A stretch of 63,312 nucleotides of DNA, filler included, from Platydemus manokwari (taxonomy: Eukaryota), in NCBI GenBank assembly GCA_037951405.1. It is 6 parts of 6 records of this genome, joined end to end, with 100 filler letters (N's around TTAATTAATTAA, not from the genome) between each part and the next. Parts side by side here need not be neighbours in the genome. Positions count along the whole stretch, not along the records: positions 53,385 to 63,312 come from JBBMOY011188211.1; 5 more parts are not named here. One strand, given 5' to 3'. Both the position numbers and the translations under genes were made by a program. Position 1 is the stretch's first letter. The number at the start of each line of letters is the position of its first letter. The notes under the pieces were generated by a model. The model was not told the origin of the DNA, ran no database searches, and worked only from the letters and a program-made list of their open reading frames with translations. Shown in pieces: positions 57,200 through 59,367 of the stretch.

Positions 57200-57728
57200 A
57201 TGCTGAGAATAGAGGTTGTAGAATATTCGCAGTTGGAGAAGTGGCCAGCACAAACGCGAAAAGTGGTTGAGGATCAATTTTTGAAAGGAGTGCATCAACA
57301 TATCAGTACAGCGCTCAGTCACGTCGATTATACCACTTACGGTGAACTCCTCAAAATTATGAAGGATGAAATGAACTCTACATCTTACATTTATGAATAA
57401 AATTTAAAGACCATCACCCACGAAATCCATCGACAATAGTCATCCAAAATCCACGCTATTATTCACAAAACTACGTAAATCGTCGGTCAGCGACTTTCCA
57501 GAGAAGCAGCTAGGGGTGACATGCTTTAAATGCAACTGAATTGGACATTATGTCAATAAATGCAAATTTGCATTTGCCAGCGAGAATCTAACGAAATCTC
57601 GAGGCAGTTCCACTTTTCCAATTCTTAAACGACAAGATTTACCAATTTAAGACAAAAGATCATGCTTTATATGCGGTAAAATTGGTCATCTTGCGAGAGA
57701 CTGTAAAACAGGAATCTTCACAAATTAA
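57200..57728 (+). pseudogene. Gag C-terminal remnant with two CCHC zinc knuckles
   Basis: DQFLKGV; VTCFKCN*IGHYVNKC (~57516-57563); RSCFICGKIGHLARDC (~57657-57704), then a stop codon. Confidence 0.85.
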
Positions 57729-57853
57729 AATACTAAGAAAAATTGAATTAATCAATAATAAAAATCGAATATATTTAATGAAATCAAAAATTGAGAAAAG
57801 TAAAATATTAATTAAATATATCTTTAAACTTTTGGGGCAAAACCATAATTTTT

Positions 57854-59367
57854 ATGATGATGATAATAATATTTGGTGTCGGTACCGAAGTTAGAACCCT
57901 AATTGCACACGATTGCTCTAAAACGGAAATGGGAAAATTTTATTCGTTAATTGATATAACGGAATGCCCAGAAGCATATCCGATGAAAATCTCTAGTGGC
58001 AAAAATGAGCATTATTTTCTATATCAGGAATCAAATTTTATTAGAGTGCAAGTAAAATAATGAGTCTTTAAGAAGAAAACTTTTGTTAACAAATCCAAAC
58101 GCAGTAGCGTCTATGCTGGTTGCCGAAATGGAATATTTGGTCGCGTTTTAGTCGAGGCAATATATAGATGCAAATGCAAGGAAATCTCAGTCCAAATAAT
58201 GAAACACGAGACTTACACAAACGAACTTTCAATCAATGTCGAAGGAAAACTACGTTCCATCAAAATTAGAAATTGAATTAATTGAATGATTAAAAATTTA
58301 TTTCTCGTACACTCATCTTATCTGGATAAACAAAACTCGTAACCCAGGAACTATCCGAAATTGGCTCGCACATCAAAATATTTCTAAAGCGTTCACATTA
58401 GATGAATTCAATGAAAAAGTAATTATCAATGATCTGACATCGAATAGACGATATTCGTGGAAAACCGCATTTTGGATTAATCCTAATTATGATTTCGGAT
58501 GGCCAGTTTCTCTTCTGACAATTCATGTATGGTCTAGAGAAATTAAAAATAAAGTTACAACTGAACCACTTATTGACGGTATTGTATGTCGATGGCATTA
58601 TGAACCAAATACATTAGTGAAACTAGAGACTTTCAGTTATAGAAAATCAATTAATTTTAAAAAATCATTAACTTATACAAAAATCAATAACTTGAGATTA
58701 TGTAAAAAGAATAGGATAAGTATAACGTATTATGAAATGAGAGTGACAGATGACGGTAAGTATGGGAGCATTACAAGAAAATAAAACGATTGTAATACGC
58801 AAACCAAACAACAGAGCACAAATCTCCAAAACATCTACATCAATCTCAGTTCAAGACGAATGTAGTGGTGATGAAAATCTGAAAGTCACTTTGAATTTTA
58901 TGGGAACCCATAAAACCTTTTTATTGCATCCAAAACAATAACATGCGAAATTCAAAAATTTAAATCACGGAGAGGAATAAAAATTAAAAATTGAATAATG
59001 GAAACAATTGCAATCAGAATGGGAACTCAATTCAGTAGAATATACAAACATCCAGTTGCAGAATCAAACAGGGACTTTAATTTGATTAACCATAACATTT
59101 CTAATAATGATTTAAATGTGATCAGTAACCAATCCTAGTCCAAAAGTCGATTACAATCGAACAGATCTCGAAAGCTGAATGAAATTCCGATTAAAGAAAT
59201 ACAGTCTAAGTTTGATCCCGATGCTTGGATCTTATCCTTAGTTATTATATTCTTCGTCGTAGTAATGACTATGATGGTGATATCAGCACTAACTGTCAAA
59301 TCTTCGTTTGACCAGGCTCGCAGGCACTATACCACACAAGTGAGAGGTCAAGCAACTTGGGTATAAG
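57854..59367 (+). pseudogene. Degenerate env-like glycoprotein (chuvirus-like/class III fusion type) with signal peptide and C-terminal TM
   Basis: LIAHDCSKTEMGKFYSLIDITECP...LYQESNFIRVQVK; EAIYRCKCKEISVQIMKHETYTNELSI; LCKKNR; FLLHPK; TM WILSLVIIFFVVVMTMMVISAL. These fit the A.DC...SL....C...L.Q and GE..Y...C..V.V......C..ELPV patterns as recalled for chuvirus-like glycoproteins. Confidence 0.7.

Follow-up and report, generated by a model that had tools for sequence, protein, structure and literature searches.

A decayed gag-env locus of Platydemus manokwari very probably derives from a Ty3/gypsy family with env before pol and a likely FN3-like membrane protein after integrase

The window analyzed here, a stretch of 63,312 nucleotides (filler included) joined from six parts of the AT-rich, 911-Mb genome of Platydemus manokwari (approximately 2 million contigs), contains at 57238–59740 the remains of a retroelement, hereafter copy A. 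It lies in the part from 53385 to 63312, which represents an entire contig (G000:C1188211), and its features are compiled in Table 1 together with those of its neighbors. The initial annotation overlooked an unrelated, decayed gypsy element on the left, which is fused to the gag piece of copy A at 57238–57242. This neighbor was recognized by Pfam matches to RVT_1 (E = 0.0012) and Integrase_H2C2 (E = 1.4e-8), and by sisters of its own at the loci L097, L101, and L037. At these same loci the neighbor's family and the family of copy A also adjoin each other. No repeat pair that would mark LTRs was found within the stretch, nor was a tRNA gene detected in the window.

Table 1. Features of copy A and adjoining sequences (positions count along the window).
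Feature	Position	Strand	Remarks
Neighbor, decayed gypsy element of another family	55380–57242	+	Knuckle-like motif, RT, integrase zinc finger
Copy A, gag 3' part	57238–57724	+	Capsid end, 2 of 3 CCHC knuckles; lacks the 5' LTR and the beginning of gag
Copy A, deletion junction 1	57725–57739	+	~1.4 kb missing, with the third knuckle and the bulk of region X
Copy A, X tail, internal signal-peptide-like leader (57854), env N-terminus	57740–58087	+	PF24664; in frame with X in L025
Copy A, env middle piece after junction 2	58086–58256	+	~0.80–0.85 kb missing; 2-nt microhomology
Copy A, ORF Y lacking signal peptide, after junction 3	58255–59366	+	FN3-like ectodomain with frameshifts and stops, TM ~59226–59291, short tail
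Copy A, 3' UTR start	59367–59740	+	Ends at 59740, ~1.7 kb short of where L028 has its 3' LTR
Copy B, post-env spacer, PR, RT, RH, IN start	60522–63095	+	Separate, more diverged fragment, many stops and frameshifts
Family LTR remnant joined to copy B	63101–63260	+	67–83% to LTR of L021, L025, L026, L027, L028, L036

The two CCHC knuckles noted earlier in gag were confirmed at 57522–57563, where an in-frame stop interrupts the motif, and at 57663–57704 (Pfam zf-CCHC, E = 2.6e-8), with a further stop directly after 57724. The initial annotation let gag end at this stop (~57728), followed by a gap of about 125 bp and a signal-peptide ORF. The stop is present, but it marks a deletion junction rather than the natural end of gag, as the frame of L026 remains open from gag past a third knuckle into region X at the position where the window has its stop. 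In six sisters, 857–1466 bp lie between the matches to gag and to env, versus 15 bp in the window. Similarly, the hydrophobic leader at 57854 does exist, but it is not an ORF start, since in L025 it sits within an open frame that arrives from X. A genome search with 57150–59800 gave 56 matches (40 of 1124 candidates scored), and these break at common window positions, 57724/57740, 58087, 58255/6, and 59740. The deletion junctions show microhomologies of 2–3 nt.

The sequence behind the leader agrees with the chuvirus-like glycoprotein start proposed earlier, matching positions 4–72 of the 653 positions of PF24664 (Monjiviricetes_fusion, E = 3.8e-6). Following junction 2, the middle piece is 40% identical to env from a relative with an unbroken frame (E = 8e-8), and the env interior of four sisters is longer than that of the window copy by 0.80–0.85 kb. 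Elsewhere in the genome PF24664 was matched with E = 8e-12 and 1e-21 in pieces of L022, and with E = 1e-94 in an unbroken relative. Judged from these profile matches, env is a gB/chuvirus-type class III glycoprotein, and the proposal of an env-carrying retroelement lineage with a fusogen of this type was borne out. In a tree of env segments, those of the window family formed a clade of their own among the related families and outside proteins (11 of 36 rows, support 100/99). By eye, their motifs K-TTFVF-C-KWSH and AAFQT--LKI are closest to those of Smed_errantivirus_1 and _2. Env carries a second hydrophobic segment after its TM, so that its topology is tentative. This tree and the RT tree described below were built from single-frame segments only (RT of at least 105 aa, env of at least 150 aa, shorter ones dropped) and contained no named reference elements.

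The glycoprotein had been thought to continue to a C-terminal TM. That TM is present at approximately 59226–59291 and closes the frame 59139–59366, but it belongs to another gene, ORF Y, and not to env. The sequence 57854–59367 is consequently not one glycoprotein; it consists of an env 5' piece, an env middle piece, and Y, which is a post-integrase gene in the sisters. Its frameshift-corrected translation, considered as a single protein for folding, was dropped as a chimera of two genes. At junction 3 (58255/6), approximately 4 kb is missing, which corresponds to the 3' half of env, PR, RT, RH, and IN. In the sisters, the sequence left of this junction runs on through the remainder of env to pol, and that on its right has integrase in front of it. 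Both sides are separated by 4.3 kb on one contig at L088. We regard it as highly probable that copy A is a decayed copy of a Ty3/gypsy LTR retrotransposon family with the order gag-X-env-PR-RT-RH-IN-Y, most likely translated as one polyprotein, and that gag, the two env pieces, and Y were brought together by three deletions that are probably confined to copy A.

The complete family order was LTR-gag-X-env-PR-RT-RH-IN-Y-LTR, with X putatively ubiquitin-like. Over 50 contig-scale loci, some of them clipped at 10 kb and all picked by similarity to the stretch, gag preceded env in 10/10 cases, env preceded pol in 14/14, gag preceded pol in 12/12, and pol preceded Y in 18/18. At L088, a single contig carries gag, X, env, PR, RT, RH, IN, Y, and UTR one after another. 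The LTRs of the sisters measure 446–456 bp with TG...CA ends, the 5' LTR is followed by a PBS-like stretch, and a purine tract resembling a PPT precedes the 3' LTR; this Ty3/gypsy arrangement was seen in L021, L025, L026, L028, and L036. Summed from its pieces, the element is approximately 12 kb long. The pol order PR-RT-RH-IN, a Ty3-like RT, and matches to Integrase_H2C2, rve, and RT_RNaseH place the family in Ty3/gypsy. BEL/Pao pol domains and the gag-pol-env order of Anakin-like elements were both lacking; the superfamily is thus not BEL/Pao, which the initial annotation had named among the known captors of such glycoproteins.

Among the loci examined, no full-length copy of the window's family was unbroken, so that its presumed polyprotein is a composite drawn from various copies and relatives. 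In-frame joins were found in the sisters between gag and X (L026, with three knuckles), from X through the leader into env (L025), and between integrase and the Y leader (L093), and a single tblastn segment in L026 indicates that env and PR are joined in frame as well. Other families in this genome have unbroken PF24664 frames of 3304, 2338, 1497, and 1207 aa, in which zf-CCHC, env, and protease are followed by RT, RH, and IN where the contig reaches that far. Just behind the 3304-aa frame, at L071:1644–3674, there is a 677-aa ORF having no Pfam match. Eight outside proteins of 2099–4057 aa show the same order in a single frame. The coding sequence of the window family thus most likely reads as one polyprotein. 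Nematode endogenous retroviruses reportedly contain a continuous gag-env-pro-pol ORF.

The layout in which gag is directly followed by env with no pol between was ascribed initially to the element itself, with a pol-less gag-env helper or satellite mobilized in trans as one possible explanation. This explanation would account for gag, the env start, and a TM-bearing tail adjoining each other in the window, and other pol-poor derivatives do occur in the family (L036, L140, and L148). Their breakpoints, however, differ from those of copy A. Queries of 120 bp found that 0/40 other scored matches span junction 1 (40 of 79 candidates scored) and that 0/39 span junction 3 (40 of 60 candidates scored), both within a highly fragmented assembly; a single match extends 26 bases past junction 1, and it comes from a copy without the deletion, in which X stands upstream. 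Junctions 1 and 3 are hence unique to copy A among the scored matches. Amplified copies that share the deletion and retain LTR, PBS, and PPT, as a non-autonomous TRIM-like element would have, were not found. The env of copy A is devoid of most of its ectodomain and of its own TM. LTR, PBS, and PPT are all absent from copy A, and no frame is intact; with no LTR, primer site, or intact frame, it can neither transpose nor act as a helper. The helper or satellite explanation is therefore largely refuted. The loss of the enzymes from copy A is most likely a one-off deletion. Such an event had been allowed for earlier in combination with an ordinary gag-pol-env order of other copies; the latter was not found, as env stands before pol.

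An assembly chimera of repeat copies might also produce such junctions in a genome assembled into approximately 2 million contigs. One public sequencing run, and no RNA run, was listed as containing the sequence; among the listed records of this run, whose contigs are strongly fragmented, none bridges the junctions. Assembly words are far longer than 2–3 nt, the size of the overlaps at the junctions, which argues against misjoining. Moreover, the pieces of copy A all follow the order of the family and show comparable divergence (77–94%), and we hold a chimera to be very improbable.

The PR-RT-RH-IN remnants reported downstream are indeed located at 60900–63095, within copy B. The best PDB match of its RT was Ty3 RT (E = 5.9e-27). 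An RT phylogeny of this downstream pol placed it with support of 100/100 in one clade (14 of 29 rows) together with the RTs of contigs that have env or Y of the A type. This raises the alternative that the window holds a single gag-env-pol element whose own pol is 60522–63095: gag-env-pol is the family order, and copy B, besides falling in the common clade, covers part of what copy A lacks. Y and the 3' UTR nevertheless precede copy B, yet Y follows pol in 18/18 loci, and 780 bp of unrelated DNA intervenes between the two copies. Over 14 shared contigs, copy B reached at most 84.6% identity (mean 82.0), while the Y of copy A reached up to 93.5% (mean 88.5); the integrases of the 14 sisters attain 92.7% among themselves. 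A closer subfamily combining an A-like Y and a B-like pol at equal identity was not seen. These comparisons leave very little chance for a single element. Of the gag-env-pol layout proposed earlier as an alternative, the order itself is that of the family, but the downstream pol is not that of copy A, since Y and the UTR stand in front of it and its divergence is greater. From its sequence affinities, copy B is assigned to the same family as a separate copy.

In the sisters, Y starts with a hydrophobic leader that continues the reading frame of the integrase C-terminus, and Y is likely a single-pass membrane protein having a signal peptide and an FN3-like ectodomain. Approximately 150 matches to Y occur in the genome, and a homologue of 35% identity is present in a diverged family. 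The dN/dS values were 0.13–0.47 in 11/12 window-sister pairs, the remaining one being saturated, and 0.06–0.12 in two sister pairs, values which indicate that Y is under purifying selection. An ESM Atlas query with Y returned FN3 as the first match (0.94), and the best named matches were 10/10 of the FN3 clan; a second Atlas query gave 0.90 with low recognition. A Y profile run against 1.84 billion proteins yielded five matches, namely four Y-like proteins, one of which begins with an integrase tail, and one protein with four fn3 domains (E = 1.7e-5). Pfam matches of Y itself were weak (DUF5126, E = 0.012; Fn3-I_PB4, E = 0.34) and did not reach fn3, four close Y homologues had no Pfam match, and a PDB profile search with Y gave nothing below E = 1. 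The AlphaFold model of Y (pLDDT 35) was too poor for a fold search. No longer Y homologues appeared in a word-indexed search, which is weak evidence.

The relatives end in a module of comparable build. Of the eight outside proteins, six reach integrase, and each of these terminates in a leader, an ectodomain, a TM, and a tail; the other two end before RT. The 3304-aa relative likewise has, behind integrase, a TM detected by scan and a leader recognized by eye. When this relative was included, an FN3-like motif was found in 6/7 ectodomains, and the window-family Y showed weak similarity to the outside ectodomains (E = 0.023–7 in a seven-sequence set). In P0005, P0008, and P0009, a further protease-like domain is located between integrase and the Y leader. 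P0004–P0010 contain two or three aspartic-protease-like domains per polyprotein, positioned after env and after integrase.

Region X, between gag and env, appears to comprise ubiquitin-like and helical domains. The X of the window family shares 25–36% with the matching segment of P0001, whose outside homologues match Pfam ubiquitin (E = 4.4e-5); a direct Pfam ubiquitin match was absent from the window-family pieces. At L070:2880–3401, a helical domain situated before the ubiquitin-like segment gave a LEDGF match with E = 0.12. For the helical domain of X, a resemblance to LEDGF/IBD was considered and is not claimed at this value. In related families, a Bcl-2-like domain additionally stands directly in front of the env leader, with approximately 90 genome matches (for example at L075:541–990, L151:968–1708, and L070:3738–4187). 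It matched Pfam Bcl-2 with E = 5e-7 in a frame running into env, and Bcl-xL with E = 5e-4 in a PDB profile search. All Foldseek rows for its model (pLDDT 73) were of the Bcl-2 family, none below E = 0.001, and in VIA-align the first 29 rows were of Bcl-2 fold (best Z 9.1 with an rmsd of 3.5 across 111 residues). The window family shows putatively ubiquitin-like segments alone before env: the Bcl-2-like domain was found in 0/20 of its loci at iE < 1, part of these loci being devoid of region X, while the profile matched 6/6 control loci, five of which were within the profile. The Bcl-2-like cargo was set aside as a novelty, being already in print (PMC6431247) and absent from the window family. 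Ankyrin-like repeats follow the protease of the 2338-aa frame at L072:7902–8477 (G000:C1403980; Pfam Ank_4, E = 0.025), and they are also present in the outside proteins P0004 and P0011. The genome gave 105 Bcl-2 matches in total. Canonical-looking Bcl-2 genes were recognized by eye at L153, L154, and L122 (G000:C1916386, C1722511, and C1189590) beside long frames resembling zinc-finger proteins and protein-primed polymerases, with an adenoviral-protease-like frame in addition at L153; these are probably polinton/adintovirus-like elements carrying Bcl-2.

The planarian Burro/GYPSM1 elements encode one polyprotein comprising a CCHC Gag, ubiquitin/SUMO-like, BCL2, and ankyrin domains, and a mononegavirus-like env in frame between Gag and PR, followed by PR-RT-RH-IN (Arkhipova and Yushenova 2019, PMC6431247). 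The window family resembles them in having env in frame inside the polyprotein, as judged from sister joins and, in relatives only, from unbroken frames, and related families in this genome share the BCL2-like domain before env and the ankyrin-like repeats after PR. It differs in size, Burro/GYPSM1 exceeding 30 kb with an internal region of up to 25 kb as opposed to approximately 12 kb with an LTR of about 450 bp here, in lacking the BCL2-like domain (0/20 loci), and in possessing the post-integrase signal-peptide/FN3-like/TM protein, which is absent from the Burro section of PMC6431247. GAG-ENV-POL errantiviruses with an HSV/gB-type ENV have been described in Platyhelminthes, Nematoda, and Bryozoa (Chary and Hayashi, PMC13524379), and the window family agrees with these in its Ty3/gypsy pol, gB-type env, and env position between gag and pol. 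The main text of that paper names no fibronectin, FN3, Bcl, ubiquitin, Burro, or post-integrase membrane protein. Nematode endogenous retroviruses, a metavirus group with ENV before POL (Sacco et al. 2022, as cited in PMC13524379), show this same placement in a different host phylum. Anakin-type elements (Dezordi et al. 2020) have a glycoprotein of the same family, PF24664, but a BEL/Pao pol, in contrast to the Ty3-like RT found here and the absence of any BEL/Pao-specific Pfam family. The portions of PMC13238120, PMC8532177, and PMC11410931 consulted offered nothing further for comparison. We thus file the window family as a Burro-like GAG-ENV-POL gB-type gypsy, because it works like Burro and fails its size and BCL2 features.

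The gag-env-pol order, the in-frame env, and the Bcl-2, ubiquitin-like, and ankyrin cargo are hence known already, and the joining of gag to env in copy A, a remnant left by deletions in a layout already described, has no significance as such. Y is the one feature of the family not found in the printed texts consulted. Neither fibronectin nor FN3 is mentioned in the main text of PMC13524379, whose figures or supplements may annotate Y, or in section 7 of PMC6431247, and no paper joining FN3 with LTR elements was found in the literature searched.

Y may tentatively be viewed as a second surface protein that would mediate adhesion or bind a receptor, an assignment with slightly less than an even chance. 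Regarding the role of Y alone, it could instead be a cell-surface decoy, a cytokine-receptor-like FN3 protein altering host signaling. Such a decoy would fit the cargo of Burro elements, which relates to apoptosis and ubiquitin, and the Bcl-2-fold and ankyrin cargo of the relatives, and the Atlas look-alikes include FNDC5, FNDC4, and FN3 proteins of the interleukin-receptor type, but at low scores (0.85–0.90). On the other side, the shared polyprotein would yield one Y for each Env, and the Y of several relatives includes a Ser/Thr-rich stalk; both would suit a surface adhesin, and a decoy appears rather unlikely. Y may also serve a role of another kind.

In the intact family, synthesis would presumably proceed as follows. 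Gag and the putatively ubiquitin-like X would be made in the cytosol, and the internal signal peptide would direct the class III fusogen into the ER. The env TM could then bring the chain back to the cytosol for PR-RT-RH-IN, before the second signal peptide, located after integrase, delivers Y to the ER, where it would become a type I membrane protein. Gag, X, Env, the Pol enzymes, and Y would be released from one another by signal peptidase together with the aspartic protease of the element. Env would provide membrane fusion, and Y would most likely serve as a second protein of the particle or cell surface. As a speculation that we consider doubtful, Burro-type elements might be two-glycoprotein retroviruses, with one polyprotein supplying a class III fusogen before Pol and an FN3-type attachment protein after integrase. 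This would resemble the division of fusion and attachment in herpes- and paramyxoviruses, undescribed for LTR retroelements, and the extra protease-like domains by both anchors in some relatives would free Pol. If true, Y and Env would constitute a two-protein entry system in a retroelement. Should Y be a conserved second surface protein, it would offer a handle on the cell-to-cell passage and tropism of flatworm gag-env-pol elements.

Two further observations concern the remainder of the window. On the same contig as copy A, a short ORF at 54119–54331 (+) encodes a signal peptide, an acidic spacer, a KR site, and an amphipathic Gly/Leu/Ile-rich tail; this architecture is like that of an antimicrobial-peptide precursor, and the Pfam match was weak. 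Another part of the stretch contains a split paired-type homeobox gene at 46281–50050 (+), which matched Homeodomain with E = 1.6e-13.
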